NCBI GenBank assembly: GCA_963770835.1
Contig: CAVYRH010000002.1
Coordinates: 160,001 to 224,000, forward strand
Source: an uncultured Pseudomonadota bacterium
Lineage (GTDB): Bacteria; Oederibacteriota; Muellerivitia; Muellerivitales; Muellerivitaceae
Direction of reading: 5' to 3'
DNA length: 64,000 nt
Part shown: positions 10,191 through 56,983 of the stretch, in pieces
Numbering within the stretch: position 1 is the first letter of the stretch
How the letters are laid out: every line of letters starts with the position of its first letter
The notes under the pieces: model-generated
What the model was told of the DNA's origin: nothing
The model's input: the letters and a program-made list of their open reading frames with translations, nothing else
The model's database searches: none
Position numbers and translations under genes: made by a program

Positions 10191-10265
<75 letters not shown>

Positions 10266-18139: not shown

Positions 18140-18420
18140 ACCTCGCTTTCTTCCCCGCCACTGTTGTAATACCGTGGTTCCCGGTGGAACCGGACGATGT
18201 TCTCGAAATGTTTCTCAGGCCAGAAACTCTTCAAAACGTAAAAAACGGTGGCCACAACTAAAGCCGAGAAGAATAGAACCAGGCTCCCTTCTAGGCCCCA
18301 AACACTGAAAAGCAATATGAACCCGAAGGCGTCGGCGATGAAGATGAACATCAAGCGAGTGAAGTCCGAGGCATAGAACAAGCCCCACATCCTGGATTCC
18401 TTCTCAAGTGGGATTGCCAT
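18136..18420 (-). CDS. VirB3/PrgI-like small membrane protein
   Basis: 94 aa with 2 TMs, overlaps the virB4 start, ends in a PRYY-type tail. Confidence 0.6.
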   Translation of the reverse strand: MAIPLEKESRMWGLFYASDFTRLMFIFIADAFGFILLFSVWGLEGSLVLFFSALVVATVFYVLKSFWPEKHFENIVRFHREPRYYNSGGEESEV

Positions 18421-20326: not shown

Positions 20327-20389
20327 ATGAAACCTTCCAAATATCAAACTGCTTTAAGGGGGATATGCCCCCGTTCACTTCATAAACCG

Positions 20390-26419: not shown

Positions 26420-27097
26420 TTACCTCACTGGTACCGGATGCGCATCAAAGGATATATTCTTTTTTGGCCGTCCTGGCTTCTTGTACGGACGCCAATCCAA
26501 GGCCGTTGGGTTGAAGGGCGCAAACCAGTAATAGGTAATAGAGCCGGGGGCCTTTAATGTCCTTGTGTATTGCAAGTAATGGTTCCGGTGCCTGAACTTT
26601 AATACTTCCATGATCCACTTGCGCCCCTTGCCCTTTCGATGGGCCCATAAAAGGAAGCTGGCTTTAATCATCTTATAAGGGAATCCGGTTTTCCAGAGAT
26701 CGTTCAGGGCCTTGCTTTGCATTAATGTTATTTTTGGTCCGAATCCCCTTTTGTTCCAGAAGCGAAAAAACCTGTGGCCGAAAGGTTCCTGGGGGTGCCT
26801 TTCCTTGATTTTTTGCCAGGTGTACCTCCAACCTATTGATTTCCCTTTCCCGAACAACTTGCAAAAGTACCAATAAACGTTGTTCCTGTGGGCATTCATT
26901 GCCTTGGCGCTTCGGGCTAGGTTTCCTTCGTGGAGGGCAAACCATGTCATGTGATGGTGGAAGCGGAATACCTCGGGAGGGTTGCCGGCTTCCCATAGGG
27001 TGTTTAGGGTTTCTAAACCCTTTCTCAAATCCTTAAGAGAGTAGACGGGTTCAAAGACTGCATCCTTTAGTTTAAAAGGTCTTTTACGGGTGGTCAT
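26420..27097 (-). CDS. Basic HTH-containing hypothetical protein (paralog of 27238-27882)
   Basis: GNLARSAKAMNAHRNNVY Fis-like HTH; C-terminal KPGRPKK AT-hook-like motif. Confidence 0.7.
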   Translation of the reverse strand: MTTRKRPFKLKDAVFEPVYSLKDLRKGLETLNTLWEAGNPPEVFRFHHHMTWFALHEGNLARSAKAMNAHRNNVYWYFCKLFGKGKSIGWRYTWQKIKERHPQEPFGHRFFRFWNKRGFGPKITLMQSKALNDLWKTGFPYKMIKASFLLWAHRKGKGRKWIMEVLKFRHRNHYLQYTRTLKAPGSITYYWFAPFNPTALDWRPYKKPGRPKKNISFDAHPVPVR

Positions 27098-27237
27098 GAT
27101 GGGGCCTAGTTTTTTTACACTCTCGGCCCTTAAAGCGGGCTAGGCATGACGAAAATTTCATAAGGCCGGAGAAACTACCCAAGAACTCAAAAAAAGAATA
27201 CCGCTCGTAACTCTCGGGCTTTGGGTGAAATATTTTT

Positions 27238-27882
27238 TCATTTTTCAATCCTCGGCCTTCCCTTCATTCCCTTAGGATACCAATCCCCTATCGAAGGATT
27301 AAGCGGTTGGAGCCATTTCCAGGCCGGGGAACCCCTTTTGACAGCGGCAAAACGAATACGGTGGAGTGTCCGCAAATTGAATCTCAGCCGTTTTATAACC
27401 TCATCCCAACCCATTCCCCTCCTGAAAGACCAAAGAACATAATGCGACCTCAAAAGTTTGTAAGGAAACCCAGTCAGCCAAAAATCCACCAGGACCCGGT
27501 TTTCGGGAATGTTCAATCGCGGGCGTCCACCAGCGAATTTATATAATTCCAAAACCATTAAAGGGAAGGGCCAGACCGGCTTCTTTTTGCATAAGGAATT
27601 CCATTTGGCCCTGAACCGGTAGGTCTTGGGCGTTCCCACCAAAGCCTTGAAGACATATAAAATTTTGTTACGGTGGAATCCAGTGATCCGGGCCATAGCA
27701 GTCACGTAGCCATTAGTCTGGGCGAACCATGTGAAGTAAAAATGGAATTTTAAATCCTTGGGGGTGAGTCCCTTCGACCAAAGCCGGTCTAAAACCTTAA
27801 AGCCGTTTCTTAAAGCCCCGCCCTTCCCTTTGCGGTTATCCATTTCGACAAAAGGGATATTGTTCCACATCCTCTTACTCAA
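27238..27882 (-). CDS. Basic HTH-containing hypothetical protein (paralog of 26420-27097)
   Basis: Shares TWFA, HRN, WxTGFPYK, PxNP and DWxP motifs and a GRP tail with its neighbour. Confidence 0.7.
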   Translation of the reverse strand: MSKRMWNNIPFVEMDNRKGKGGALRNGFKVLDRLWSKGLTPKDLKFHFYFTWFAQTNGYVTAMARITGFHRNKILYVFKALVGTPKTYRFRAKWNSLCKKKPVWPFPLMVLELYKFAGGRPRLNIPENRVLVDFWLTGFPYKLLRSHYVLWSFRRGMGWDEVIKRLRFNLRTLHRIRFAAVKRGSPAWKWLQPLNPSIGDWYPKGMKGRPRIEK

Positions 27883-29768: not shown

Positions 29769-30005
29769 TTAGTCCGGCTTACAACCCGCGCCGGGCATAA
29801 GCCCGACAACTTCGATCACCTGGGCCACACGTGGGAAAATCTCGTTGAAACGAACCGGGCTCGCCCAATGAACCGGCTGGTTTGAGTCCGTTGGGTCCCA
29901 CACCACGAACATGGCCGCCCTCATGCCAACCGCCGCCGTCCTTGCCTCCTCCCGGACGGCCTCGTAAACCTCCGGCCAAAGCTCCCTTGCGATTTCCTTA
30001 GTCAT
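29769..30005 (-). CDS. Hypothetical protein
   Basis: 78-aa ORF with AGGAG RBS in the leading-region operon. Confidence 0.5.
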   Translation of the reverse strand: MTKEIARELWPEVYEAVREEARTAAVGMRAAMFVVWDPTDSNQPVHWASPVRFNEIFPRVAQVIEVVGLMPGAGCKPD

Positions 30006-30044
30006 GCTCTTTCCTCCTTTCCTAAAGAATCCGGCCCATGCTGT

Positions 30045-30466
30045 TCAGGCCGCCGCCTTCTCCAATTTGGTTTTAAAAATAAAGTCCATCGCGGCCTGGG
30101 CCTTTGCCGCCGCTGACAAAATGGCCCGCTTGTCATCCTTCAAGACCCGAATCCAATCCCCGATGTAATCAGAGTGCTGGGTGGCATAGGGGATTCCGAC
30201 CGAGGCGCAAAGGAAAGCCGCCCCCATTTCCGCCACCAGTTCCTCGAAAGCGTAGGCCCTGTCCCCGAAACGCTTCCCGTTTTCCCGGTCCAGGCGGCTC
30301 CCGTGGCCGGTCCAATGATGTTGATTCCCCGGTAGGGTTTCCTCGTGCTGGCGTTGACGGGAAGGGGAAGCCCCCTTCCCTCCCCCCAGGGCTTCTCCCA
30401 AGGGGCGACACCCCGCCCCAAATCCCCCAAAACCCTGCTGGTGATTTCCTCCGCAATGTTCCTCAT
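30045..30466 (-). pseudogene. ardC: ArdC-like antirestriction protein with internal deletion
   Basis: N-terminus EITSRVL..GVAPWEKPW..PVNASTRKPYRGIN joined out of frame to the C-terminus HWTGHGSRLDR..YAFEELVAEMGAAFLC..AAAKAQAA. Confidence 0.85.
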
Positions 30467-30960
30467 TTCTTTTCCTCCCATCTGTGCCCCGGCTACTAGC
30501 TGGGGCAAACGGTTTGATTGTGCCGGGCCTCAAACAAAGGCCCGGCTTAAGTTCCTTAAAGTGACTCAACAAGCCTTTGGAACTCCAAAAGCTCCAAGGG
30601 GTCCAGGGCGCATCCCACCGCCCCCAGAAACTCCGCCTCGGTCAGGCCGTCTTTCGAGTCCACCAGGGCGCGGTTCTCCATGGTCCTCCATCTCGTAAAA
30701 GAAGAAGCCTCCGGCCCTCCTTCCCAAAGTGGATTTCGTACCGGCCCCAAACCTTGAAGCTCCCAGACCCGAAACGATGGATGCGCCATAACCCCTCCTC
30801 AAAAACTCCAACCTTCCTCAAGCTTCCGGATGACCCGGTCGATCTCCTCATCCGAAACCTTCCAGTCCCCTTTGGGCCTTCGGCTCCTCGGCCTGACCCC
30901 CCTTCCGGTTTTCTTTCCTGCTTCTTTTCCTCTTCCATTCCCATCACCCCCTTTCTTTTT

Positions 30961-31835
30961 GGTTTTTTTTGATGGCTTCGCATTCAAAAAACCGCCTTCC
31001 CCCTCCCCCCTCAAAAACCAGAGGGGGGAGGGGAAGGCAAAGCGGGAGTTTTGGGAGATCGTGAGTGGAAAGCGCGAAACTGCCGGAGGGAGAAAAAGGA
31101 AGGCCACCCTTTACTTTTGTGCGCCGCGCCTTTTGCTGGCGCAAAAGTTGCCGTGCAAGGGTGGCCGTGTAAGTAAACAAAGCCCTATGGGGCCTCGGGA
31201 CGGGCTCCCGAAACTATCCGTCGTCCAAAGACCTCAAGTCCCGGACTTCACTGTCTGCTTTGGAGTTTGCTTTTAAACAGCCAAGGAAGGAACGAGCCAG
31301 ATCTACCGGGAAGGTTTGAAAGGAATCCCCGCTACCCGAAGGCCCTTTCCCCGGCGGCAAACCGAGGCGGTTTTTTCATGTCACGCCGAAATTTGCCGCT
31401 GGGGAAAGGGCTTACTGAGGCCTCAAACGCCCCATCCATTTATCGGCGGCGTGCCAGGGCCGCATTTGGCGGTGGCCCAGGCGTGCCGCCGCCTTTGCGG
31501 GGGGACCAATCCGAAATCCCCCTCACCGGATTGTCGACTCCAAAACACCTTCCCCCGGAGGGCTAACTTACTTTGGCTGGCGGGCAAACCGGTGAGGGGG
31601 ATTTCGGCTTGGTGGGGACCCCAAAGGAAAATGGATGGGAGGTGTGTCCGTGAACACCAAACCCCCAAGCGCGGTTTTGGGAGTCAAAGAGGGGCTTTAC
31701 CCCTCTTTTAGGGGTTTGGGGGCGACGCCCCCCAAGGAAAGGGGTGGGCCAAGATCATCCCACAGTCTTTGTGGGATAGCTTGGCCCAGGGGGAAGGCCC
31801 ACGTTCCAAGGCGCTTTCCCTTGGAACGTTCCCCC
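30961..31835. other. Highly palindromic non-coding tract (candidate oriT / single-strand origin / ssDNA promoter, or large ncRNA)
   Basis: About ten long GC-rich inverted repeats, some nested; no convincing ORF. Confidence 0.6.
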
Positions 31836-31861
31836 AAACAAACAAAACACTGAATCGCCTA

Positions 31862-33128
31862 TGACCGGCCCCCCAAGTTTGTGCCACCAATTAAGTCACT
31901 CCCGGAGTAGGAGTTCCTGAGGTCGTCATGGGCAAGGTGTTGCCTTTGGGCCCCATGACGACCGCCTCCGGGGCAGGCGGTTTATACCCCAGAGAGCTGT
32001 GCGGCCGTTTCGTATTGTACTCCTTCCTCCACCTCTCAGCGAGCACTCGGCCTTCCCACACCGTGTCGAGCAGTTCGCCGTTCAATAGTTCGTCCCTGAA
32101 TTTGCCGTTGAAGCTTTCGTTATAGCCGTTCTCCCAAGGGCTTCCCGGTTCGATGAAAAGGGTCTTTACTCCCACCTTCGGGAGCCAGTCCTTCACCCTC
32201 TCCGCTGTGAATTCAGGCCCATTGTCGGAGCGGATGTGCTCCGGCACTCCCCGTTGGACGAACAAGTCCGTCAGCACTGCCTGCACGTCGTCCGCCGTAA
32301 ACTTCCGAGCTACCGGCAGGGCCAGGCATTCACGGGTGAACTCATCGATCAGCGTCAGGAACCGAAGAGGCCGTCCGTCGCTGGTCCTCTCGGCGACGAA
32401 GTCATAGCTCCAAACGTGGTTGGGGTGTTCCGCCCTCAACCTGACACAGGAACCATCCGTAAACCACAACCTCCTTCGTTTCGGCTGTTTTTTCGGTACT
32501 TTCAACCCTTCCTGCTTCCAAATCCTTTCCACCCGCTTCTTGTTGACCCTCCAGCCCTCCTCCTGAAGCATCTTGGTAATCCGCTTATACCCATACCGCC
32601 CGTACTGGCAGGCCAGCCGGAGAATGGCGGTCGTCAGGAGGTCCTCATCGGGCAGGATCTGAGGGATATATCGCTGGGTGCTCCGGGGTTGGCCGAGGGC
32701 CCGGCATACGCGCCGCTGGGAGGCTCGGTGGGTTTCACACGCTTCCCGAACCGCTTTTCGGCGCTTTTCCGGGCTTAGGAGTTTCCCCGGGCCAAGTCTT
32801 TCAGGATGCGGTTATCCAGGGAGAGGTCGGCCACCACCCGCTTGAGCTGGGTATTCTCTTTCTCCAATTCCTTTAGGCGTTTGGCCTGGTCCAGCTTGAG
32901 ACCGCCGTATTCTTTTCGCCAGCGGTAGTAGGTATGTGGGGTTATTTGAAGCTCACGGCAGACTTCTTCAACAGCACGGCCTTTGGACTGCTCAACCTCG
33001 GCCTGGCGCAACATGGAAATGATCTGCTCGGCGTTGTGTTTCTTCCTTGGCATAAATGCCCCCTTTTTCTTGGCCCATTATAGAAAAGTATGACTTTTCA
33101 ACTGGACCAGGTTGAGGGGGGCGGGTCA
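31862..33128 (-). mobile_element. IS3-family insertion sequence
   Basis: Terminal IRs TGACCGGCCCCCCAA / TGACCCGCCCCCCTCAA; orfA and orfB with GGGAAAC slippery site at 32781-32787; no target duplication. Confidence 0.93.
31891..33053 (-). CDS. IS3 transposase OrfAB (-1 programmed frameshift)
   Basis: OrfA HTH 32775-33053; OrfB DDE motifs WSYDF, SDNGPEF, ENGYNESFNG. Confidence 0.92.
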
Positions 33129-33432
33129 AAGAAGGGTCGGAGACCATGAAATCATCAACAAAACAAACTTTTCCGCCCGGGTTATAGACTGGCGGGGAAT
33201 TGACGACGGCCCCAATGATGAAACCGTTGATCTTTTGCGCACCATCCCCATATATCAAGGCGATCACGTTCTCCTTCGACAGGAAGTCTTTCAAAAAAAC
33301 GGTTTGCAACTCAACTGCGCCTTCAGCCTCTTTATGGAATTGTGGCTGGTAATTTTCATACTGCTTTCTTTTGAGGGCGGAAAGGGACGCAATGATCTTT
33401 ACATCATCGGTGGTAGCTTTTCGGATAGTCAT
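33129..33432 (-). pseudogene. GNAT acetyltransferase truncated by IS3
   Basis: MTIRKATTDD...PPVYNPGGKVCFVDDFMV, ending at the IS3 IR. Confidence 0.8.
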
Positions 33433-33464
33433 TCTCTTCTCCTGATGGACTTAAACCGTAAATC

Positions 33465-33496
33465 ATTGTCCACGATGGCTCCCCGTCGTGGACAAC
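33465..33496 (-). repeat. 32-bp palindromic site A
   Basis: GTTGTCCACGACGGG-GA-GCCATCGTGGACAAT, 4 nt after the PIN stop codon. Confidence 0.85.
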
Positions 33497-33500
33497 CAGC

Positions 33501-33902
33501 CTATAGGTTTTTCAGAAAATTGGACGGATTCACGACTTTTACATTTTGGTAAACCCCAACATCCAACAAAGCATTATCACCCGAGACGATGAATTCAGCG
33601 CCCCCCGCCAATGCCGCTGCAATAAACTTATCATCATCTGGGTCTTTGCAAATACCTTGGACAGGCTTGGCGTTCACCAGTTCGCAATTCAACTCGATGA
33701 TTTCAAGTATGGTCCCAACCTCAACGCCAGGGTGTCGTTTAGCTAAGTCTTCCAAAACGCGGTGGTACTCCTCAAGGATTTCCGGGGATGCCAATAACTT
33801 GAAGTCACCTCGTTCCCAAGATTCAATGACTTGGTAAGGCTTCCCCTTCCAGAAGATTCCAGAAACAAGAACATTCGTGTCTATTACAACAATCCTTTTC
33901 AT
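33501..33902 (-). CDS. PIN-domain toxin
   Basis: VVIDTNVLVS, EILEEY, DPDDDKFI, IVSGD. Confidence 0.92.
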   Translation of the reverse strand: MKRIVVIDTNVLVSGIFWKGKPYQVIESWERGDFKLLASPEILEEYHRVLEDLAKRHPGVEVGTILEIIELNCELVNAKPVQGICKDPDDDKFIAAALAGGAEFIVSGDNALLDVGVYQNVKVVNPSNFLKNL

Positions 33903-34159
33903 TTACCGCGCCGGACACGGGTTATGGCGGTCTTCACGTCCGACGGACGCAATCCAGCTTCACTCGCTTGCTTTCGTGCGGTGGCAAGTAAACCGCCCAG
34001 ATGGCTTAAGGATGGCGGGGTGATCGCTCTGAAAATCACCGAATCACCTTGGCCGACAACGACGAACTGATCCCCTTCTTTGAGATGCAGACTTTTGCGG
34101 ATGGATTCGGGAATAACTACCTGCCCTTTCGAGGAAAGCTTTGTGGTTGCTATGGTCAT
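33899..34159 (-). CDS. AbrB/MazE-type antitoxin
   Basis: TTKLSSKGQVVIPESIRKSLHL; own promoter TTGAAA-N17-TATTCT (34188-34216) and operator-like palindrome CCAGTAAGATTACTGG. Confidence 0.92.
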   Translation of the reverse strand: MTIATTKLSSKGQVVIPESIRKSLHLKEGDQFVVVGQGDSVIFRAITPPSLSHLGGLLATARKQASEAGLRPSDVKTAITRVRRGK

Positions 34160-34246
34160 AGGTCACCTCCCAGTAATCTTACTGGTAAGAATATACGTAA
34201 ATCCAGGTCATTTCAACTGTCTGTTTTCATGTCCAATAGGGGTCCC

Positions 34247-36187
34247 GTAGGGTCGAGGACTGGTGCGGTGGCCTTCTGGCTCCGTTTCCAGTCCCCGCCT
34301 CCTCGAACGTAGCGTGCGGATTTCCCGCACTACGCTCACCTGTTGCTTTCCTGTCAAAGTTTATGTGACCTATCAGACGGGTAGCGCTTTCGGTTCTTGG
34401 TAATATCGTATTTGGTAGCTTCTGTACAACCCCAGATACTTATATATCCACTCCCTACTCCACCTATCCCGCCCAAAACCGTCGAGCTTCTTCGCACGCA
34501 TCATATGCCGTCTGATTTTATTCTCGACCCATCTTTCCACGTAGTTAAAACAGCGCCTAGAATTCCCTATCCGAAAGTAATTCACCCACCCACGCAGTTT
34601 GGGATTGATAATCTCAATCACCCTCTGCACCGGCTGAGATTGGAAGCTTCCAAATGTTTCCTTGAGCTTACCCAGAAGTGTTGCTCGCGCCTTCATTTTC
34701 GGCGTGAACTTCACCCCCCATTTCCCTCGACGGGTTTTCACCTGTCGAAAGTCAAACCCCAGAAACCCGAAACTTTCACCTTTCGTTAAGTCTGCTATCC
34801 GCGTCTTGTCCGTGTTGATTTGCAAGTCGAGCTTGGTCAATTCTTCAAGTAACCTTCGGTAGGCAGCCTTTGCCAACCATTCCCATTGCGGATATCCATT
34901 AACAAGGATCACCATATCGTCAGCGAACCTCGCATATTCGATATAGTTGTTCTTCCCTTGCCGAGTCACTTCTTTTGCCTTTTCCAGCATCTTATCCACC
35001 TCGTTGAGGTAGAGATTAGCCAGAAGAGGGGAAATAACCCCTCCCTGCGGGACTCCTCTTTTGCCGCTGGCCTTCAGGATCATCCTCAACAATCTCAACA
35101 CCGTTTCATCCTCAACCCTTCGGGCAACTTTCTTCATCAGAAGGTCGTGCCTTACCGTGTCGAAATATGCCTTGAGGTCTACATCAATGACTCGGGTTTT
35201 TCTACAGACGATTGCCGATGCTACCCTGTTCACAGCCGCATGAGCGGTCCGCTTGGGTCGATACCCATAGGACCCTTCTTGAAAATCGGCCTCAAAAATC
35301 GGTTCCAGAATAAACTTCAGTGCTCCCTGGACTACTCTATCCCGAATGTTGGGTATCCCAAGGACTCTTACCTTCCCATTTCCCTTGGGTATTTCCTTCT
35401 TCCGGTTTCGAACGGGCTTATACGTGCCTTGAACTAATTCACCCCGGATGCTTTCCAGAAACGACTCCACTCCGGCCTCCTCAATGGCATCAAACGTCAC
35501 CCCATCTATTCCAGGGGCTCCGTTATTTACCTTAGCCATTCGGTAAGCCTGTTGAAGCGTTTCCATCTTGCAAACATGGGTGTACAGTCCCCAGAAACTC
35601 CAGTTCTTTTCAGCCTTCGCTTTGACGTATATCTCTCGTCTCAGGTCTTGCAGGTTAATTGACGTCTTTTTCATACCGTCACTGCCTTCCGTTTTGTCGA
35701 GGGACTTAACAACAGCAGGGTTCCTTCGCTCCACGGGCATTACCCCGCTTCATCGCTACCATGAACCCATCCTAAACCCTCTCACCTTCGACCGTTTTCC
35801 CGCGTCACGGTTATACGGCCTACCTTTCTCCAAGCATTTCTGCCTGGGGCAAGGAGGGTTTCTCCAGTTGCTTGGCGTGTCCTTGTCTTCGTGCCGTTGC
35901 TATCACCCCGTCGGAGTGTTCCAGCGCTTCAGCCATTTCTCCGCGCTGTCCCATGATGCTTTCGTCCCACGACGGCGGACTCAGCCTCCGAGGCAAGTGT
36001 TTTCGGGGCCACCTGTGCATTTACTTTCGTTACGGCCCGACGACTCGCTCACCATCCTTTCGATGGCTTTGTTGATGGGCTTCAGGCATTTGGTTTCCCG
36101 CTTGCCTGCCATCCTAGCTAATGGGCTTTGGCTATTACCCATGCAAGACTATCTCTTGCTGAACACACCTGCCTTTTCTGGACGCAC
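34247..36187 (-). mobile_element. Group II intron 1
   Basis: 5' GTGCG; domain V (GAGCGTAGTGCGGGAAATCCGCACGCTACGTTC) and domain VI ending CCCTAC; RT ORF; EBS1 loop at 35968-35974. Confidence 0.93.
34373..35674 (-). CDS. Group II intron reverse transcriptase/maturase
   Basis: APGIDG, LGIPNIRDRVVQ, DLKAYFD, PQGGVISPLLAN, RFADD, GWVNYF; no endonuclease domain. Confidence 0.95.
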   Translation of the reverse strand: MKKTSINLQDLRREIYVKAKAEKNWSFWGLYTHVCKMETLQQAYRMAKVNNGAPGIDGVTFDAIEEAGVESFLESIRGELVQGTYKPVRNRKKEIPKGNGKVRVLGIPNIRDRVVQGALKFILEPIFEADFQEGSYGYRPKRTAHAAVNRVASAIVCRKTRVIDVDLKAYFDTVRHDLLMKKVARRVEDETVLRLLRMILKASGKRGVPQGGVISPLLANLYLNEVDKMLEKAKEVTRQGKNNYIEYARFADDMVILVNGYPQWEWLAKAAYRRLLEELTKLDLQINTDKTRIADLTKGESFGFLGFDFRQVKTRRGKWGVKFTPKMKARATLLGKLKETFGSFQSQPVQRVIEIINPKLRGWVNYFRIGNSRRCFNYVERWVENKIRRHMMRAKKLDGFGRDRWSREWIYKYLGLYRSYQIRYYQEPKALPV

Positions 36188-36221
36188 CGTCGTGGACAAC
36201 CTCAAAAGCGACTTTGATTTT

Positions 36222-36818
36222 TCACCTTTTGTTAAATAATTCTTTGATCGTCTTAATGGGCAAAAATAAGGTTTTAGGATCGCTCGACAATGGGACAAAC
36301 CCATATTTCCGATAAAATCGGACGGCGTTTTCATCCTTGGCGTCAACCACCACGGCATATATGCCAACTTCTTCCGATAAGCGATCGGCCTTGCCAAGGG
36401 CATTCCATAAAAGCTCTCCCCCGATTCCTTGGCCTTTGTGATGCTTGTCTACCCCTAACCTTCCAATTCTAACGGCAGGGACGGGATAGCGAGGTAGGTG
36501 TTTAGAGTGGATTGCAGGAATACTTTGGGCGTCAATCTCGGAAGCAACAAGGGTGTAAAAGCCCAATGCCTTCCGGCCCCCCTGCGCCGAGGTCTCAAAC
36601 CGAGGCTCTCGCTTGGGTTGTGCCGGTTCCAAATGGGAACCGGCCCCGCCCTTTTCCACGGCCACAAAAGTTTTGCTGATATTCCGATCGTGATTTTGCC
36701 GGGCGTATTTTTGGAGATAGTCATTCAGGGCCGGTGCGCCGCAATCGAAAGACCCCAAGTCCAAATGGCGGGATATTGGCTGAATGTCCATATTCAAAGG
36801 TTTTTCAGAATGGCTCAA
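36222..36818 (-). CDS. GNAT toxin (TacT/AtaT type)
   Basis: FDCGAPALNDYL, LPRYPVPAVRIGRLGVD, GQGIG, VVDAKDENAVRFYRKYGF. Confidence 0.9.
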   Translation of the reverse strand: MSHSEKPLNMDIQPISRHLDLGSFDCGAPALNDYLQKYARQNHDRNISKTFVAVEKGGAGSHLEPAQPKREPRFETSAQGGRKALGFYTLVASEIDAQSIPAIHSKHLPRYPVPAVRIGRLGVDKHHKGQGIGGELLWNALGKADRLSEEVGIYAVVVDAKDENAVRFYRKYGFVPLSSDPKTLFLPIKTIKELFNKR

Positions 36819-37090
36819 GCGCGGCTATGCTTCTTGGCGAGGGCCAAAAGGGCCTTAGTGGGGCGGGGCGGATGCTCCATGACTTTCATGAAGGAATTCC
36901 ACTCGTTTTCCGAAAGGGTGATGCGGCTTTGGGCCGTAAGCCCTTCCTGGGCGGCTTTCAAAGAATTAAAAAGCATGAAGGCGCTGAGACTTAGCCCGAA
37001 GATCGAGGCGGCTTTTTCAAGCATGGCCTTGTCCTTCGGTCGGATGCGAATTTCGATTCGTTGTTCCCTTGATTGCGTTTCCGTCGCCAT
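36815..37090 (-). CDS. DUF1778 (TacA/AtaR-type) antitoxin
   Basis: REQRIEIR..KAMLEKAA..LSAFM..ITLS..WNSF..HPPRPT; own promoter TGGACA-N17-TATACT (37116-37144). Confidence 0.9.
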   Translation of the reverse strand: MATETQSREQRIEIRIRPKDKAMLEKAASIFGLSLSAFMLFNSLKAAQEGLTAQSRITLSENEWNSFMKVMEHPPRPTKALLALAKKHSRA

Positions 37091-37314
37091 AAACCCTCCT
37101 TATACCTTTAAAAGAAGTATACATTAACGTACGGATGATGTCCACACATAAGGTGTAGAGTAGAACACAGGCGCAGTAATGTGCAGGTTAACCCTTGGCT
37201 TGTTTCCCTGTTTCCAGTTCCGTGCCCGTTTAGGATCGCCCATCATTCCGTTTCCTGCATCCCCTCATCAAACCGTACGTGACCTTTTCGATCATACGGC
37301 TTTCCGACAACCTT

Positions 37315-38595
37315 TCATCCGGCGGCATACGAGCTAAAAGTTGGAATCCAGTTCAAACCAAGGCGTTTCACTTCCTCGATCGGCCATGTTCGTCCTTCCC
37401 AGGCGTACTTACGCCTCCGGAACAAAGTCAGCCTCTCCAGTACGTAAAATTGGAGCTTAGAAAAGTACTGCTGGCTATCCCCGATACGAAAATAGTTGGC
37501 CCATCCCCTCAACACCGGGTTCAAAGCCTTCGCTAAATCCTCCATTGGAGATAAGAGTCGCTCTCGGCCCGCCGTCATCTGCTTCACCTTCTCGGCGATT
37601 TTCTTCATAGCCTTCCGACTCGGCCAGCTCAGGCAACAGGTCTTTCCCAATCCTACCACTGGCATACCTACTTGAAAATGAAACCCCAGGAAGTCAAAAC
37701 CTTCCTTTGCAGGCCCCATTTCCACCAGCCGTGTCTTTTCCGGGTGCAGTTCGAGCCCCATACGTCCCATCAATTGCTTGATGACCTCCAGGCTCTTTTC
37801 CGCATTGGCTTGGCTACCGCACAGCACCACAAAATCATCTGCGTACCGTACCAGCCTTCCCAATTTCCTGTGCCTCTTATTCCAAACCTTGTCCAACAAG
37901 TGGAGGTAAACATTGGATAACAGCGGTGAAATTACTCCGCCTTGGGGCGTCCCTTGGACGGTCGGCCTAAGCCTACCTTCCTCAAACACACCCGCCTTCA
38001 GCCACCCTTGGATCAGGTTCAAAATATTCCTGTCACTGACCCTCTGGCGCACTAGCACCATCAGTTTGTCATGGTCGATGGAATCGAAATACTTCCTGAT
38101 GTCTCCATCCACTACCCATGTGTACCCCCCGTTGATCCACTTCTTGATCTCCCGGTGGGCCTGTTGGGCTCCGCGTTTTGGCCGAAATCCAAACGAGCCT
38201 TCCAGAAAGTCCGCCTCAAAAATAGGTTCTACCACCTTCCGGCAAGCCGCTTGGACTACCCGATCCCGGATTACCGGAATTCCCAACGGTCTCTTACTTC
38301 CGTCAGGCTTGGGTATTTCCACTCGTCTCACCGGCTTAGGCCGGTACTTCCCAGATTTGAGTTCCTCCTGGATTCCCTTCAGGAATGGAATAATCCCTAC
38401 CTTCTTTTCAATCCATTCCAGTGTTTCCCCGTCCACTCCTCCTTGGCCTTTGTTAGCCTTCACCTGTTTCCATGCCGCTACCAGGACATCCCATCGGGTC
38501 ATCCTGTCGTACAGCACATGGAACCTTCGGTTCGGGCTCCTCTTGGCCGCTCGGTATAGCTCCCTTTGAAGGATTCGCGCCTTGTCTTCGGAGAT
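37315..38595 (-). pseudogene. Group II intron RT/maturase, N-terminus cut off by the IS
   Basis: GVDG, LGIPVIRDRVVQ, PQGGVISPLLSN, RYADD; removing the IS restores ..PTTD|ISEDKARILQRELYRAAK. Confidence 0.88.
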
Positions 38596-40111
38596 AACAT
38601 GAATGAGCCAGCGGCCTGCGTAAAATAAAACGGGCCTTGTTGAAGGGCCCTAATTCGCGGGTTGCTCCTTGAGGGAGCCTATCCGCATACGGAGGGCTGG
38701 CTCATGGAAAATAATATCACGGTGGTCGGGTTGGATGTCCATAAGGATACGGTGGTAGGTGCGGTCCTGCCGGCTAGGGCCGAAAATGTGAAGGATATTT
38801 TTACAATCGAGAACACCCCAAAAGCATTGGGGAAAATGCTGGGTAAGTACGAAGGACGAGGGTCAATAACGTTTGTGTACGAGGCGGGCCCTTGTGGATA
38901 TGACATCCACCGGCAATTAACCCAAAAGGGGTTGAAGTGCGTCGTAATCGCCCCTGGGAAAATTCCAGTGAAAGCCGGGGATCGGGTGAAGACAGACCGC
39001 CGAGATGCGGAAAAGTTGGCCCGTCTTTGGAGGGCGGGAGAGCTGACGGAAGTGCGGGTTCCGACCATCCAAGAGGAAGCCTGTCGGGATCTGGTTCGAG
39101 TTCGTGAGGATGCCCTAGAAGACCGGCAAAAGGCCCGGCACCGGTTGTCGAATTTCTTTCTTCGGCAAGGTCGTATCTTTCGAGAAGCTAAGAATTGGAG
39201 ATCAGCCCATGAGGCATGGCTGAAAACCCAAAAGTTCGAACCTCTGGAACTGCATGAGACTTTCGAGGCATATGTCCGCGGGAAGCAAGAGGCAGATGAG
39301 CGGTTGAGGAGTTTGACGAGCCGAGTGGAGGAGATGGCCAGCCAAGAACCCTACAGGAAACTGGTCAAGCATTTGAGGTGCCTGAAAGGGGTTGATACCT
39401 TGAGCGCCATGACCTTGGCGGTGGAAGGCCAAGATTTGAGGCGATTTGAGAGCGCTCGTAATTTCATGGGTTACGCGGGTTTGGGGATATGTGAAAGCAG
39501 TTCAGGTGGAAAAATCCGTCGGGGAGGAATCACCAAGACCGGGAACGCCCATTTGAGACGGATTCTTGTGGAATCGGCTTGGAGTTACCGCCATGGGAAG
39601 TCGGTCGGCGTGGTTTTAGAAAAAAGGCGGGAGGGTTGTCCGGTGGAGATTTTAAAGATCGCCCGCAGAGCACAGGATCGTCTGTACAAAAAGTTTCTAA
39701 AAATGACCCAACGTAACAAGCCCATCCAAAAAGTAGTGGTGGCCGTAGCCCGGGAGTTGGCTGGATTTGTGTGGGCCATCGCCCAGGAAACAACAGGAAT
39801 GGTTTAACAAGGTCATGAAGGAAGAACCCTGTTTCCGGAAGCTTGGCAACGATTTGGAGAACCCTCGGTACAACTCTGTGGCGCAAAGGCCTAAGCCTGC
39901 GACGACCCACGATCAGAGATCGAGGCAGCTCCCGACGAATGAAAATCTTGCGTCCCTGGAACCAGCAATGGGTCTAACACGCGAATATCAGTTTGATTCA
40001 TCGTCGAAACAAGCCGGGCTTTCGAGATCAGGGCTTTTCGCAGGGCCTTGAGGTGGAAAAGAGTAGGATAAAACCAAAGGAAAAACCAGCGGGCTTGACT
40101 GGCTCATTCAT
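38596..40111 (+). mobile_element. IS110 family, IS1111-type insertion sequence
   Basis: IRs ATGAATGAGCCA (38599-38610) and TGGCTCATTCAT (40100-40111); ~300-nt non-coding region 3' of the transposase; no target duplication. Confidence 0.88.
38704..39807 (+). CDS. IS110-family DEDD transposase/recombinase
   Basis: VGLDVHKD, YEAGPCG, VKTDRRDA, ESSSGG..GGITKTGNAHLRRILVESAW. Confidence 0.95.
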   Translation: MENNITVVGLDVHKDTVVGAVLPARAENVKDIFTIENTPKALGKMLGKYEGRGSITFVYEAGPCGYDIHRQLTQKGLKCVVIAPGKIPVKAGDRVKTDRRDAEKLARLWRAGELTEVRVPTIQEEACRDLVRVREDALEDRQKARHRLSNFFLRQGRIFREAKNWRSAHEAWLKTQKFEPLELHETFEAYVRGKQEADERLRSLTSRVEEMASQEPYRKLVKHLRCLKGVDTLSAMTLAVEGQDLRRFESARNFMGYAGLGICESSSGGKIRRGGITKTGNAHLRRILVESAWSYRHGKSVGVVLEKRREGCPVEILKIARRAQDRLYKKFLKMTQRNKPIQKVVVAVARELAGFVWAIAQETTGMV

Positions 40112-40661
40112 ATCAGTTGTTGGCCTTTTGGGGCATGCTCCAGCGCCTCCCTTTTCCGGTTGCTTGGTTGAAGCAGGGGTCCTTCCCTCCAGGTGGTTTT
40201 GTTGTCCACCCTTCAGCGGTAGTGTGACCCCCTCCGACTTCCTCTCGCCCTTACCACTTTTCGGTTTTAGCCTTATAGCGGCAAGTCTTTTGGCGGGTAG
40301 GATCTCCCAGGTTGCTTGCATAGCCTTTCCAACATTCCGTTCCCCATACGCCGGAGGATTTGCCCCGCTTGCTCCAGATTCTTTAGCGGGATAATAGCCT
40401 TCGCCGGTAGACACGCGGCTCGGCATCCTCTTGCACCTTTCGGTGTCCCTTTCACGACGCGGCAAGATTCACTTGATGTTGCGGACTGCTGAATTGTTCC
40501 CTCACCAAATGAGGTTTATGACCCCGTTTCGGGCAGGACCTCTCGGCCCTACGCCGGGGGCTGACTTCCAGGCTCTCTGGCGATTACCTGGTCAGGACTT
40601 GGGCTGGCCCTCCTCGACCTACTCCCTCACCTGCTGGCTCTGCAAACCTTCGCTGGCACGC

Positions 40662-40691
40662 TGTCCACGAAGGGTCCCCGTCGTGGACAAC
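40662..40691 (-). repeat. 32-bp palindromic site C (last 2 nt at 37153-37154, beyond intron 2)
   Basis: GTTGTCCACGACGGG-GA-CCCTTCGTGGACA|AC; 15-bp arms with one mismatch. Confidence 0.85.
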
Positions 40692-40799
40692 AAACATAAT
40701 TAGGTTGCACATTACACAAGAGACACAAATTTGATCCAAAGAATGCTTTGCCACATCTTTGACAAAAATAAAAAAATTTTAAAACATCTAAAATCTAAG

Positions 40800-41852
40800 C
40801 CGAATTCACGGAGTAAGTGCAACACTTCGCCGGAAGACTTCCGCCGGAGTTTGAAAGCCCAGACACTTCTTAGGCCTGTTATTGAGGGACCTTTCGATTG
40901 CCTTGAGCTTCTTGGAGGACACTTTAGCAAGGTCAGTCTTTTTTGGCAAATAGCGGCGAACAAGACCAATGATATTTTCCACGGAACCTTTTTCCCAACT
41001 GTGGAAAGGAGCGCAGAAAAAGGATTTTGTACCAAGGACTTGATTGGTTTCCAGATGGTTGGTGTTTTCGGTTCCATTGTCATAGGTCAGACTCAGGCGA
41101 GCCTGTTGCGGGAAGCGGCTTAAAGTACGGTTAAGGCTATGACTCATTTGGAGAGCTGTCTTTCGTTTGAGCTTTCCCAGCTTGGAGAACCGGCTTTGAC
41201 GCTCGACGAGAGCGCGTACAGCAGCCTTACTTTGACGGGAAACCATAGTGTCCGTTTCCCAATGGCCAAACTGCTTGCGATGCTTGACGGTCTCTGGTCT
41301 CTTGTCGATGGAAACACGGCCTGGGATATGGCTTTTGGCGTGCCTGTGGCTGTGACCAAAGGCGAGCCGCCGCCGGTGGTGACGGACCAGGCAAGGAATC
41401 AGATCAGTGGCCTCAGCGTAAATCCACTGGTAGATGGCTTCGGGACCAATGGTTTGCTTAGGCCGCAGGTGGCCTAAACGGCCTGAAATGAGTTCGGGAG
41501 ACCAACCGCGTTTCAATTGGCGACGGACGTAGGCACGAATTCGTTTTGTTTTCAGGCGTAAACGACGAGCCCGTTGTTGGTTACGGGCCACATACCGTTG
41601 ATGGGCCCGATGGGAAAGATAGTAACCAGAACGGATGGGGGGAGCGTTGCGCTTGAGTTCCCTGGAGAGGGTGGAAGGAGACCTCTTCAAGGCGCGGGAG
41701 ATGGCCCGAAGGCTAAGGCCTTTTCCCTTCAAGACGGATAAATGATCTCTTTCCTCAACACTTAAATGCTTGTAGTTCTTTTTCATGGCCGCATATCCTA
41801 TGGATGCGGCCTTCTTCAGGCACTAAGTGTTGCACTTACTAATGGAACTCGG
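40800..41852 (-). mobile_element. IS30-family insertion sequence
   Basis: IRs CCGAATTCACGGAGTAAGTGCAACACTT / CCGAGTTCCATTAGTAAGTGCAACACTT. Confidence 0.9.
40806..41786 (-). CDS. IS30 transposase
   Basis: YKHLSVEER, STLSRELKRN, WSPELIS, GHWETDT, TYDNGTE, WEKGSVEN, LNNRPKKCLGF. Confidence 0.95.
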   Translation of the reverse strand: MKKNYKHLSVEERDHLSVLKGKGLSLRAISRALKRSPSTLSRELKRNAPPIRSGYYLSHRAHQRYVARNQQRARRLRLKTKRIRAYVRRQLKRGWSPELISGRLGHLRPKQTIGPEAIYQWIYAEATDLIPCLVRHHRRRLAFGHSHRHAKSHIPGRVSIDKRPETVKHRKQFGHWETDTMVSRQSKAAVRALVERQSRFSKLGKLKRKTALQMSHSLNRTLSRFPQQARLSLTYDNGTENTNHLETNQVLGTKSFFCAPFHSWEKGSVENIIGLVRRYLPKKTDLAKVSSKKLKAIERSLNNRPKKCLGFQTPAEVFRRSVALTP

Positions 41853-42170: not shown

Positions 42171-42207
42171 TTGGCAAGGTTGCACTCTACCACTGAGTTA
42201 TTCCCGC
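42171..42207 (-). repeat. att direct repeat = displaced 5' half of tRNA-Gly
   Basis: Identical to 10229-10265. Confidence 0.92.
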
Positions 42208-42244
42208 GTTTCCGGGCCTTGGAAGGCCTTGTGAACGGAGCGAA

Positions 42245-50366: not shown

Positions 50367-51437
50367 TCAGGTCCCGAATTTGGTGTCATTGAACACCCGA
50401 ACTCGCTCTAAAGCCAATTTTCGGTCTTCCCTATCAACCTTGTCATATCGCCTGAAAACCGCGTTGGTCTTATGCCCGCTGACGCTCATGATGACCGAAT
50501 CTGGCACCCCCGCCTTGCGCATATTCGTGATCGCGCAATGTCGAAGGTCGTGAAAATGGAAATTATCCAATCCGGCCTTTTGACAGGCGTTTTTGAACCC
50601 GGTCTTACAAGCCGTTAGCCTCTTTCCTTTATAAGTGAAAACTAACGGGCTACCTATTGTCTTGGGAACCCTTTTGATGATTTCCTTTAACTTCTCATCA
50701 ACTGGTATTTCCCTCTTTTCCTGAGTCTTCGTATCCTCCGCCTCAAGAAAAATAACACCCTTTTGGAAATCCACCTGATCCCATCTTAGACCTAGGATTT
50801 CACCCTTCCTCATGGCCGTGTAGTAAGCCAACTCGACCATTGATTTCAGGTGAGGCGGACAGCATTCCAAAAGCCGTTTAATCTCAGCCGGTGAAAGGGT
50901 CCTATCCCTGGGGATTTCCTTAAATAACCTGATCCCCTCGATTGGATTCCTGTCGATCTGCCTGTTTAACTTCGCTCTATTAATAATCGTTTTTAAGCAG
51001 GCAATATCCCGGTTGAGGGTGGCCGCCTTCATTTCCTCCCCTTTGGGTTTTCCGGTTTTCCTTCTCCAAGTTAAATACTTTTCAGCCAGGTCAAGGTTCA
51101 GGCTTTCCAAAAGCTTATCGCCAAAAAAAGCCTTAAGGTTTGCCACGTAATACTTGTCCCGATGAAAACTTCTCTTCCTGGACACCGAATAAGCCATAAA
51201 GGAATCGGCGGCTTCGTTGAAAGTGATCTTCGGCTTATCCTGCGCCAAATAACTGTTTTCAACGATCTCTTGCATGTGTTGGGCCAAGACCTTCTTTGCC
51301 TGAGGCAAAGGGATCTGTCCCAAACGCACTCTTTTACGTTTATTAACTCCTTCCTCCTGGATAAAAAAATCCAGGAAATATCCCCCTCTATCTTTCCGAA
51401 GATGTTGGGGCAATCCGTGAACATTAGGCTTACTCAT
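50367..51437 (-). CDS. Tyrosine integrase
   Basis: TAMRKGE, DTKT, HFHDLRH, SGHKT, RRY. Confidence 0.94.
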   Translation of the reverse strand: MSKPNVHGLPQHLRKDRGGYFLDFFIQEEGVNKRKRVRLGQIPLPQAKKVLAQHMQEIVENSYLAQDKPKITFNEAADSFMAYSVSRKRSFHRDKYYVANLKAFFGDKLLESLNLDLAEKYLTWRRKTGKPKGEEMKAATLNRDIACLKTIINRAKLNRQIDRNPIEGIRLFKEIPRDRTLSPAEIKRLLECCPPHLKSMVELAYYTAMRKGEILGLRWDQVDFQKGVIFLEAEDTKTQEKREIPVDEKLKEIIKRVPKTIGSPLVFTYKGKRLTACKTGFKNACQKAGLDNFHFHDLRHCAITNMRKAGVPDSVIMSVSGHKTNAVFRRYDKVDREDRKLALERVRVFNDTKFGT

Positions 51438-55925: not shown

Positions 55926-56702
55926 CTAAGGCTTTAGGAGCGTGACAAACCCATATTTTTCAAACACCGCCAGGCCTTCTTTTGACTCCAAGTATGCCAG
56001 GAAATTTTCGGTTTCATCCCTTTCTTTCGATCCTTTCAAAACCGCCACAGGATAGGCGATGGTGGGCGCATCCCCTGCGGGAACCTCGTACGCCACCTTG
56101 ACCTTGGGGGATATGGCCGCATCGGTCTTGAAAACAACGCCCGCATCCACATTGCCCGATTCCACGGCGGCAAGCGCGGCCCGGACGTTCAAAGTGGATA
56201 CCACCCGGTCCTTTAATTTGTCCCAAACCCCCTTTTTCTCAAAATATTTCTTGGCGTAGATTCCACAGGGCACCCCGTTCGTATCAGCCAGGGCGAGTTT
56301 GCGGACCTTCGGCCCCGTCAGGGCGTCCAGCCCAGGAATATCCAGTCCTCCCAATTTTTCCACGACCACCACCAAGGAATTTGAAAGAAGGTCCTTGCGG
56401 GAACCATTCAACAGGAGACCCTTTTTCTCAAGTTCATCCATCTTGGCTTCGTCTGCCGAGAGGAAGAGGTCCGCCGGGGCCCCCGCCTCGATCTGCCGGA
56501 CCAGGAGATTGGATCCCCCGAAGTTGAAAACCACTTTCTCACCGGGATGCCCTCTTTCACAAGCTTTCCCGATCTCCTGGAGCACATCCGTCAAGCTGGC
56601 GGCCCCGAAAACCGTCACTTCTCCGGCTCGGGCCCAACCAAAAAGAGATAAAAAGGCGGCCACCCCAAAAATGCATATTGTTGATCTTCTTTTTGGGGCC
56701 AT
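55926..56702 (-). CDS. modA: Second molybdate-binding protein
   Basis: Signal peptide MAPKRRS..WARA, FGAASLTD, IEAGAPADLFLSA. Confidence 0.88.
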   Translation of the reverse strand: MAPKRRSTICIFGVAAFLSLFGWARAGEVTVFGAASLTDVLQEIGKACERGHPGEKVVFNFGGSNLLVRQIEAGAPADLFLSADEAKMDELEKKGLLLNGSRKDLLSNSLVVVVEKLGGLDIPGLDALTGPKVRKLALADTNGVPCGIYAKKYFEKKGVWDKLKDRVVSTLNVRAALAAVESGNVDAGVVFKTDAAISPKVKVAYEVPAGDAPTIAYPVAVLKGSKERDETENFLAYLESKEGLAVFEKYGFVTLLKP

Positions 56703-56733
56703 TGTTAACACCTTAGTTAACAATCCGATAATA

Positions 56734-56983
56734 ATCTTTGGCCTTTCTTGAGCCAAATAACTGTTTTCAACGATGGCTTGCATATGTTGGGCCAAAACCT
56801 TCTTTGCCTGAGGCAAAGGTATCTGTCCCAAACGCACTCTTTTACGTTTATTAACCCCTTTCTCCTGGATAAAAAAATCCAGGAAATATCCCCCTCTATC
56901 TTTCCGAAGATGTTGGGGAAGTCCGTGAACATTAGGCTTACTCATACTGCCTCCTAATGTCCCTTGCCAATTGCATTTTACCA
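56734..56983 (-). pseudogene. Duplicated 5' end of the integrase gene, in frame with modA
   Basis: Near-identical to ~51226-51476 (first ~71 codons, RBS and TGGTAAAAT -10). Confidence 0.88.

Follow-up and report, generated by a model that had tools for sequence, protein, structure and literature searches.

A row of small, co-oriented gene cassettes was identified in the window, i.e., the whole 64,000-nt stretch of DNA analyzed here, and is likely a serine-recombinase analogue of integrons, apparently derived from unrelated parts, for which a candidate enzyme is encoded in the same genome. We consider it quite probable that the row belongs to an integron-like cassette system employing serine-recombinase chemistry on double-stranded DNA with this predicted enzyme. 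The host is an uncultured soil bacterium, and its genome is 96% complete.

Architecture of the cassette array

The array lies in an ICE-like island, and the features of both are as follows (coordinates are those of the window).

10194-42215 (no strand assigned): host island, ICE-like, with tRNA, duplicate, integrase and conjugation-type genes
10194-10265 (no strand assigned): tRNA (anticodon GCC), with a 45-bp duplicate at 42171-42215
10289-11575: tyrosine integrase of the host island
15647-18139: TraG/VirB4-type ATPase of the host island
18404-20347: TrbL/VirB6 of the host island
29900-31861 (-): ArdC remnant (30045-30572) and upstream DNA, homologous to contig C9 of genome G020
31862-33128 (-): IS3-family element, without a 3-bp target duplication
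33129-33466 (-): cassette 3 stub, 5' portion of an ORF (start at 33432) truncated by the IS3 element
33467-33494 (-): site A, 28-bp core (pattern match)
33495-34229 (-): cassette 2 body, AbrB/MazE antitoxin (33899-34159) and PIN toxin (33501-33902), consensus promoter 34216-34188
34230-34246 (-): site B, last 17 bp
34247-36187 (-): group II intron 2 (1941 nt), splitting site B after base 11; RT ORF 34373-35740
36188-36198 (-): site B, first 11 bp
36199-37154 (-): cassette 1 body, TacA1 antitoxin (36815-37090) and GNAT toxin (36222-36818), consensus promoter 37144-37116
37155-40661 (-): group II intron 1, immediately following the right arm of site C, interrupted by an IS110 element; RT ORF 37315-38517
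38662-39807 (+): IS110-family transposase inside intron 1 (PF01548, PF02371)
40662-40689 (-): site C, 28-bp core (13-GA-13; pattern match), the first site of the array
40806-41786 (-): transposase upstream of the array, presumably of the IS30 type as named from its domain set (HTH_38 plus rve)

The site consensus was TGTCCACGACGGG-GA-CCCGTCGTGGACA. An earlier note on this DNA had described a 32-bp palindrome (15-2-15); its 2-bp center was confirmed and its length was not, the conserved unit being 28 bp (13-2-13), beyond which the outer two base pairs were conserved at only 68% and 42% on the left and 52% and 34% on the right. The three directly oriented copies were found where they had been placed on the minus strand, against 0.27 matches expected, and none of 100 shuffles reached three. 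Rebuilding the sites by removal of the two introns, both supported by Rfam and Pfam, was likewise backed by intron-free copies of the cassettes in other genomes: cassette 1 (TacAT) is flanked by a site on either side in G020 and G041, and cassette 2 (AbrB-PIN) is exactly site-bounded in G004. Introns related to intron 1 occupied the same position after the right arm in 15 of 17 genome copies, and those of the intron 2 type were inserted after base 11 of the site in 10 of 12. Some homologues of the window cassettes, however, were accompanied by decayed sites or by none, which counts against our preferred explanation.

The distance from the stop codon to the 28-bp core is 23 and 6 nt in the two toxin-antitoxin pairs, equivalent to the 21 and 4 nt noted earlier for the 32-mer. 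Consensus promoters were present in front of both pairs, as had been claimed, and are weak evidence alone because 11 such sites were found against 6.5 in shuffled sequences. The assignment of the third module as GNAT was corrected to a resemblance, since the stub cut by the IS3 element gave no Pfam hit. Nor was the first copy of a row generally the most perfect one, the mean numbers of right-arm mismatches being 1.89 in first, 1.70 in internal and 2.58 in last sites. The left arms of first sites were intact, which counts against the preferred explanation as regards the origin of rows and cassettes. Seeding of rows at degenerate secondary sites was considered and rejected, with three right-half-only sites found against six in the reversed control.

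Within the site, the central GGGA was nearly invariant and the inner right arm was the variable part. The window sites were predicted to fold stably (z -4.0 and -4.6), whereas the enzyme-side site described below was not (z 0.35), and left-arm variants were seldom compensated (0 of 12 at position 6 and 5 of 27 at position 10). A non-folding enzyme-side site and non-covarying arms are as expected for recognition of the site as a duplex. No accessory sequence was conserved past the 28 bp.

Distribution of the site across the genome and lineage

The site was by no means local to the window: the genome carries 99 copies in 34 clusters, 15 of which are single sites, and a search with the arms only gave 89 matches against 3 in the reversed genome. 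In the order, 28 of 32 genomes had the site, against none of the 67 remaining genomes of the phylum (candidate division FCPU426), and viral contigs gave no match to the site pattern. A scan of a genome collection returned at least 149 stretches; among the matches listed, those in records named as other phyla occurred singly and in most cases had no right arm, and were therefore treated as chance.

All 62 pairs of neighboring sites were co-oriented, none being inverted. At 86 of 98 sites the 150 nt preceding the left arm contained the end of a same-strand ORF; the frequency was 228 of 1000 at random places and, in the mirror-side control, 30 of 96. The cassettes were mostly 0.3-4 kb and enzyme-free, mostly containing one gene or one toxin-antitoxin pair, and the same cassettes recurred beside different neighbors, identical ones being found in several rows of the genome. 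A Cas1 module, the introns and an IS110 also sit directly at sites, and some sites follow housekeeping-like genes. No match was obtained with PADLOC at 1e-8 for 30 unannotated cargo and flank proteins. A role of TGGACA in the right arm as a -35 box was dismissed, since a -10-like hexamer at a distance of 16-18 nt was present in 7 of 140 flanks, a frequency not above that at other spacings.

Exchange within the site center

To locate the exchange point, the inheritance of the two arms was compared among 171 sites, one further pair sharing an IS110 end being set aside. Where the downstream flank was shared, the right arm was identical in all 25 pairs (7 groups) and the left arm differed up to position 10; where the upstream cassette was shared, the left arm was identical in all 10 pairs and the right arm differed in 7, from position 16, with positions 16-17 differing between partners of the same cassette. 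This pattern places the exchange within the central GGGGA (positions 11-15, including GA at 14-15). Cassettes were shown to be framed by a right arm at the start and a left arm at the end, to lie in same-orientation rows, and to have been swapped between rows and genera, the joint falling inside the central GGGGA. Homology between genomes breaks at the site center, and in six loci different cassettes adjoin the same enzyme-side right arm.

Contigs of soil run X1 included one of 826 nt that runs across one cassette between its two sites, and a second that departs from the reference right after GA. Among the contigs of four runs, whose word shares were 0.06-0.25, no back-joints of circles were found, which cannot exclude circles. 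Contig ends lying loose at sites may be other repeat copies, and uncovered parts prove nothing.

These results sustain two central proposals of the earlier note. An integron-like cassette array on a non-attC site is supported by orientation, cargo position and shuffled neighbors, and a serine-type 2-bp center by the presence of GA in 85 of the 89 arms-only matches together with the mapped exchange at positions 11-15. A dispersed REP or terminator, fixed island content and a canonical attC, the outcomes that the same note had set against its own reading, were not encountered.

A short serine recombinase as the candidate enzyme

The sole serine recombinase of the genome is a 275-aa protein of the large-serine type, encoded on contig C17 only 14 nt from a site; PF00239 and PF07508 each gave one match in the genome, both in this gene, and domain searches found no full-length relative there. 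It belongs to a short clade of 19 proteins of 275-283 aa that comprise the catalytic and recombinase domains (PF00239, PF07508) and end before the zinc ribbon of their long relatives, having neither zinc ribbon nor coiled coil. The clade received a support of 100 (SH-aLRT, quick tree) and nests among 500-aa tRNA-associated relatives. Its dN/dS values in the catalytic part were 0.02-0.09, by which measure it is under purifying selection. The short enzyme carries the YxRVS motif, from which S18 of the C17 protein is taken as the catalytic serine, and its structure model, of modest quality (mean pLDDT 65.5, pTM 0.43), matched the SPbeta, Bxb1 and phiC31 integrases.

The genes of the clade lie on ArdC-bearing ICE-like elements, and in 15 of 15 loci the 3' end was 8-36 nt from the array-terminal site, with the gene facing the cassettes. 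Among long relatives from the same order the count was 0 of 8, these ending at tRNA-like sequences with no site nearby, and among the other metagenome loci it was 0 of 78. Targeting can by itself produce such adjacency, since introns, a Cas1 module and an IS110 adjoin sites as well. In addition, only 8 of the 28 site-bearing genomes were found to contain the enzyme or a remnant of it (an intact one in 5), and no remnant was found at the other clusters of the genome, all of which counts against the preferred explanation.

In the window itself, no recombinase remnant was detected at E values up to 1. The IS3 element, however, occupies the place of the terminal site and serine recombinase in the homologous G020 element, and the DNA to its left (29900-31861) is 67-82% identical, in pieces, to G020 C9 DNA located ~1.7 kb upstream of an intact short recombinase. 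The serine recombinase of the window was probably lost at the IS3 element, in line with the deletion suggested earlier. The other suggestion, a recombinase acting in trans, gained support from the enzyme abutting the C17 site in the same genome, whose action on the site is predicted.

Work on large serine integrases bears on such a protein: as reported in PMC3783163, the recombinase domain has a contact area of 13 bp, deletion of the coiled coil leaves excision with all site pairs and abolishes intermolecular integration, and deletion of the zinc domain weakens binding ~25-fold. Since the engineered deletions described there integrate or bind poorly, integration by a natural truncation needs an explanation.

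Alternative explanations

The exchange might instead be performed by a tyrosine recombinase, either the core Xer-like protein encoded on C11 or another, acting at an 11-6-11 site with the serine gene as a hitchhiker. The 28 bp can be parsed in this way, as in dif (PMC6449649), the mapped interval includes position 11/12 and thereby the top-strand cut of such a site, which counts against the serine reading, and an Xer-like gene, present in all five genomes tested, would account for rows where the serine enzyme is missing. However, dif sites as described in PMC6449649 have a variable center between conserved inner arms, and the sites of pdif modules are inversely oriented; here GGGA is nearly invariant, the inner right arm varies, positions 16-17 differ between same-cassette partners, and all 62 neighbors are direct. 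Moreover, G009, G019 and G022 (85, 97 and 82% complete) have the Xer-like gene and no match to the site pattern, and among the 12 tyrosine recombinases of the present genome none is IntI, seven end at a tRNA-like sequence or at the end of a contig, and a RIT-like trio accounts for another three. Inspected as row enzymes, none of the 12 was tied to a row, apart from one tRNA-type integrase 0.7 kb from the single C26 site. On balance, we regard a tyrosine enzyme as unlikely. Slightly less likely still is that the short enzyme only excises or resolves, circles being inserted by a full-length large serine recombinase in trans or by homologous recombination at repeats after DNA uptake. The engineered coiled-coil deletion that excises and does not integrate (PMC3783163) and the full-length relatives in the same order, at 45-55% identity, speak for it. 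Against it stand the tRNA-like ends of those relatives, the identical cassettes in several rows of a genome without any of them, and the six loci with different cassettes against one enzyme-side right arm. Twenty-eight base pairs, furthermore, are short for RecA.

Far less credit was given to two readings of the palindrome itself. If it were a dispersed REP-like repeat, a terminator or a protein-binding site after stops, and the shuffling incidental, the stable folding of the window sites, their targeting by group II introns and IS110, the many single-site clusters and the sites after housekeeping-like genes would be accommodated. Yet a T-rich tail followed only 4 of 85 sites, left-arm variants were rarely compensated, inverted neighbors were absent, homology breaks at the palindrome center, and none of 11 Y1/HUH transposase matches had flanking inverted sites, one lying inside a row as an insertion. 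Arm inheritance already appears largely to refute this reading, which we hold to be very improbable. An ordinary CALIN with unusual attC sites, suggested by layout, cargo and intron targeting (PMC4889954, PMC7923331), is hardly conceivable: no IntI was found in the genome, none of 12 matches to TIGR02249 exceeding the cut-off of 265 bits (best 44.6), and the exchange occurs at the center of the palindrome rather than its end. The absence of attC boxes asserted earlier was upheld as well, a RYYYAAC...GTTRRRY pair lying within 60 nt of only 2 of 99 sites, and an Rfam search gave no match at the sites.

Proposed mechanism and its implications

In the serine-recombinase reading that we prefer, an enzyme dimer would bind the two 13-bp arms and cut around GA, the asymmetry of which would set the direction of exchange. 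Lacking the coiled coil, the enzyme would be free of attP/attB versus attL/attR control, so that any two direct sites could excise a circle with one hybrid site; the circles would re-enter at another site, probably often the enzyme-side one. The enzyme would travel on ICEs, decay often and serve enzyme-less rows in trans, the window row being one such row whose enzyme was presumably removed at the IS3 element. We lean, with less assurance, toward the wider view that the integron evolved twice: a tRNA-targeting large serine integrase may have lost its zinc and coiled-coil domains to become a stand-alone, direction-free recombinase of ~275 aa that excises and captures cassettes at a 28-bp duplex site, giving an order-wide pool of up to ~100 sites per genome with its own site-targeting introns and IS.

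To our knowledge, cassette capture and array shuffling are known from one chemistry, the tyrosine recombinase IntI acting on folded attC strands, and we found no prior description of such a cassette system in a search of the open-access literature. If the proposal is true, cassette shuffling by a serine enzyme at a short duplex site would have been invented independently, and attC-based tools would not be expected to find such arrays. It would also provide a second system for asking how cassettes first arise and, given that integration is lost in engineered deletions (PMC3783163), a natural test of the need for zinc ribbon and coiled coil. Furthermore, with 275 aa, a 28-bp site and a 2-bp direction code, the enzyme would make a compact Cre-like tool.

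Comparison with known systems

The rows share with integrons and CALINs, as characterized in PMC4889954, co-oriented one-gene cassettes whose stop codon closely precedes the site, cargo that is toxin-antitoxin or of unknown function, many enzyme-less rows, and group II introns or IS at sites. Integrons, however, have IntI, attI and attC (PMC4889954), whereas the present system has neither IntI nor attC boxes and uses a fixed 28-bp site without arm covariation. Because the exchange falls at the palindrome center, each site is a hybrid of two cassettes, unlike in integrons, and because the 3' end of the candidate enzyme gene faces the cassettes, a Pc-type promoter cannot read them from the enzyme side. 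The pdif modules of Acinetobacter plasmids, attributed to XerC/XerD in PMC6449649, similarly place 28-bp sites around small adaptive modules in different contexts, and differ in their inverse sites, variable center and host tyrosine recombinases, the sites here being direct with an invariant center.

With the large serine integrases described in PMC3783163 (LI/A118, Bxb1, phiC31, SPbeta), the candidate enzyme shares the catalytic and recombinase domains and YxRVS, and its predicted site has a 2-bp asymmetric center as theirs do. Unlike them, it has neither zinc ribbon nor coiled coil, would act on one near-symmetric 28-bp site in ~100 copies rather than distinct 40-50-bp attP/attB sites, and would move passive cassettes instead of its own element. 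Serine recombinases also stack or excise units between direct sites in SCC/SCCmec (CcrAB/CcrC) and Tn4451-type elements (TnpX); those units are large, usually have a full-length enzyme and occupy one or few loci, whereas most of the present units measure 0.3-4 kb, and they encode no enzyme and are distributed among 34 clusters. A short crossover site with a 2-bp center, as proposed here, is also employed by small resolvases and invertases (gamma-delta/Tn3 res site I, Hin/Gin); these, however, have a helix-turn-helix where the candidate enzyme carries a recombinase domain (PF07508), and in the present system no accessory sites are conserved beyond the 28 bp.

Sites in the Window and Across the Order

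Three copies of the palindrome were recovered in the window at the positions reported in the earlier note, against 0.27 expected, and three matches were reached in none of 100 shuffles. Their 28-bp cores are as follows.

40689-40662, minus strand, site C
36198-36188 + 34246-34230, minus strand, site B
33494-33467, minus strand, site A

In the source genome (4.58 Mb, 26 contigs, 96% complete), 99 sites were identified in 34 clusters of 1 to 16 (102 sites in a looser scan), with the consensus TGTCCACGACGGG-GA-CCCGTCGTGGACA. A search with the arms only gave 89 matches versus 3 in the reversed genome, and 85 of the 89 carried the GA centre. The description of an invariant left arm and GA with a varying right arm was largely borne out, the left arm being nearly fixed and the inner right arm variable. 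The 15-2-15 palindrome proposed along with it was not; since conservation ends at 28 bp with this arm pattern, the conserved unit is 13-2-13. With one mismatch allowed, an 18-nt site pattern was present in 28 of 32 genomes from the order (source genome included) and absent from all 67 genomes taken from elsewhere in the phylum; control matches never exceeded 2 per genome. Full-site records, among the matches listed, belonged mostly to candidate division FCPU426 or to bins without a lineage name.

Cassettes and Elements Adjoining Them

Rfam and Pfam matches in and beside the window's row comprise two group II introns, one each of IS110 and IS3, and an IS30-type transposase. Two cassettes encode the pairs TacA1-GNAT toxin and AbrB/MazE-PIN, and the third module, cut short by the IS3, gave no Pfam match. 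The intron boundaries assumed earlier were backed by further intron copies in the genome. The second intron lies after base 11 of a site in 10 of 12 copies, and introns of the first type start immediately 3' of the right arm in 15 of 17.

An ORF-less group II intron of ~800 nt was also found directly 3' of the right arm, with copies >99% identical; the 5' end of these introns and of the window's first intron is TCGTG or GCGTG, not GTGYG. IS110 abuts the outer palindrome end on either side and in either orientation. A 1.5-kb module of a lone Cas1 (346 aa) and a 111-aa ORF lies 3' of a site in three places, its copies being 99.7% identical before the sequences diverge without a site. Positions on contigs (C) or on stretches used as coordinate handles (L) are as follows.

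ORF-less group II intron: source genome (G000) C3, C4, C5, C11, C15, C20, C24; e.g., L054:6926-7730
IS110 at palindrome end: L044:10329-11700, L045:3922-5290, L046:3119, L052:3072
Cas1 module: L059:3973-5476, L057:2756-4259, L044:12168-13671; fourth, partial copy C3:60753

Within the GNAT toxin gene, an in-frame insertion of ~70 nt (window 36577-36647), missing in homologues, matches short repeats that most of the order's genomes carry; it is probably a MITE- or REP-like element.

All 62 neighbouring site pairs within 6 kb had the same orientation. The left arm was preceded within 150 nt by the end of a same-strand ORF (≥75 aa) in 86 of 98 sites (median distance 28 nt); such ORF ends were seen at 228 of 1000 random positions and in 30 of 96 cases on the mirror side. 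The mean GC content was 46% in 40 short segments without introns at the start, versus 54% for the genome. No Pfam family was assigned to 61 of 137 cargo and flank proteins, while the others included many toxin-antitoxin proteins, GNATs, and TPR/Sel1 proteins, and some enzymes and transporters.

Identical cassettes were found beside differing neighbours, as exemplified by an 891-bp cassette on four contigs, and the window's own cassettes were intron-free at other loci. Among six homologous TacAT loci, two had both flanking sites, a third had a decayed upstream site, two had the downstream site only, and one had none. The AbrB-PIN cassette is exactly site-bounded in G004, another genome of the order; at least a left-arm remnant occupied the same place 3' of the PIN stop in 9/9 loci, with intact sites on both sides in only one of them (one 45-nt match was left out of the TacAT and AbrB-PIN counts). 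The only HflX-like GTPase gene of the source genome (L046:4535-6045) is likewise a site-bounded cassette, patchy across the order (12 of 32 genomes, 83-95% protein identity); of its 13 loci, 2 have good sites at both ends and most of the rest have one at a single end.

Position of the Exchange

Arm inheritance was compared among 171 sites of 8 genomes. In 25 pairs (7 groups, not independent) sharing the downstream but not the upstream flank, the right arm was always identical, and the left arm differed in 16, up to position 10. Of 11 upstream-sharing pairs, one was set aside for a common IS110 end; in the remaining 10 the left arm was always identical, and the right arm differed in 7, from position 16. 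These patterns place the joint in positions 11-15, GGGGA. In the soil metagenome run X1, one 826-nt contig covers a single cassette from site to site, and another runs through a cassette and left arm and departs from the reference directly 3' of GA; no circle joints were found among the assembled contigs of the four runs covered.

Candidate Recombinase

No IntI was found in the genome. Its 12 tyrosine recombinases comprise tRNA-type integrases, three members of a RIT-like trio, and an Xer-like protein, the gene for which also occurs in three genomes lacking any match to the site. The sole serine recombinase, encoded on contig C17 (275 aa, PF00239 and PF07508), lacks a zinc ribbon. A distance of 14 nt separates the stop codon of its gene from the right arm of a site, the last one in a row with cassettes facing the gene. 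A short clade is made up of 19 database proteins (275-283 aa, 65-100% identity), which formed one side of a branch with support of 100 among 30 long relatives in a quick tree. Pairwise dN/dS was 0.02-0.09 for the catalytic part; for the recombinase domain it was 0.09-0.36, and several pairs had saturated dS. A site followed the gene 3' end by 8-36 nt in 15/15 short-clade loci retaining that end (one site is truncated by the contig end and another split by an intron, and one gene has lost its stop; four fragments without the 3' end and one short match were left out). Eight long relatives from the order's site-bearing genomes lacked a neighbouring site, as did 78 other metagenome loci. ArdC lies upstream of the enzyme, facing away, in C17 and in genomes G043 and G020, with a TraG/VirB4-type ATPase also upstream in G043. 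In L069 and L068, a variant site after the recombinase stop has other arms and the same GA centre and 13-2-13 symmetry.

The window's row occupies one end of an ICE-like island of 32 kb that extends from a tRNA-Gly gene to its 45-bp duplicate, and no recombinase remnant was found in the window. The DNA immediately left of the IS3 matches (67-82%) G020 DNA starting ~1.7 kb upstream of an intact enzyme, and in G020 the row is found on the same side. On the simplest reading, a deletion at the IS3 would have removed the enzyme together with the terminal site and the remainder of cassette 3, as the earlier note guessed for the recombinase; this is inferred from a single homologue.

Window 30562-31835 matches C9:183-1455 and C10:3819-5085 (78%), where the elements carry on without a site or serine recombinase. 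Two related basic proteins (225 and 214 aa, no Pfam family) are encoded in the ICE at 26420-27882 (minus strand). Six paralogous tyrosine integrases of ~360 aa, 55-80% identical, occur at window 50367-51437 and five other contig positions; tRNA-like sequence follows five of them, and a contig end truncates the sixth. The first 70 residues of the ORF at 55926-56945 (minus strand) copy the start of the integrase at 50367-51437; the remainder is a ModA-like binding protein.

Proposed Mechanism

According to the relevant part of PMC3783163, the recombinase domain makes contact with 13 bp per half-site and the zinc domain with 9 distal bp, and a protein whose coiled coil is deleted excises with all four pairings of sites. 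An enzyme consisting of the catalytic and recombinase domains only fits a 13-2-13 site and is predicted to have lost direction control. The same part reports that intermolecular integration was not observed once the coiled coil was deleted and that binding was ~25-fold weaker after removal of the zinc domain, which count against the proposed mechanism. The arms show no covariation and the enzyme-side site does not fold, favouring recognition of the site as a duplex. Taken together, we hold with high confidence that the cassette system itself is real, and consider the whole explanation, serine enzyme included, likely. The system is order-wide and new in its parts, with the serine recombinase as its candidate enzyme.

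Comparison with Known Systems

Searches of full-text literature outside subscription journals turned up neither serine-recombinase cassette arrays nor the 28-bp site. The earlier note's view of a non-attC, integron-like array is upheld, in that co-oriented cassettes are exchanged as in an integron, but the system falls outside integrons by the integrase (no IntI found), by the missing attC boxes, and by a site that is not of the folded type. The 28-bp length is common to dif/pdif sites, as far as the relevant part of PMC6449649 describes them, whereas the conservation pattern is opposite and the orientation is direct here. In integrons, too, cassette sites are known to carry group II introns, as noted in part of PMC7923331. 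Finally, the enzyme, intact or broken, occurs in only 8 of 28 site-bearing genomes, which we liken to CALINs, half of which, by the pertinent passage of PMC4889954, lie in genomes without intI.
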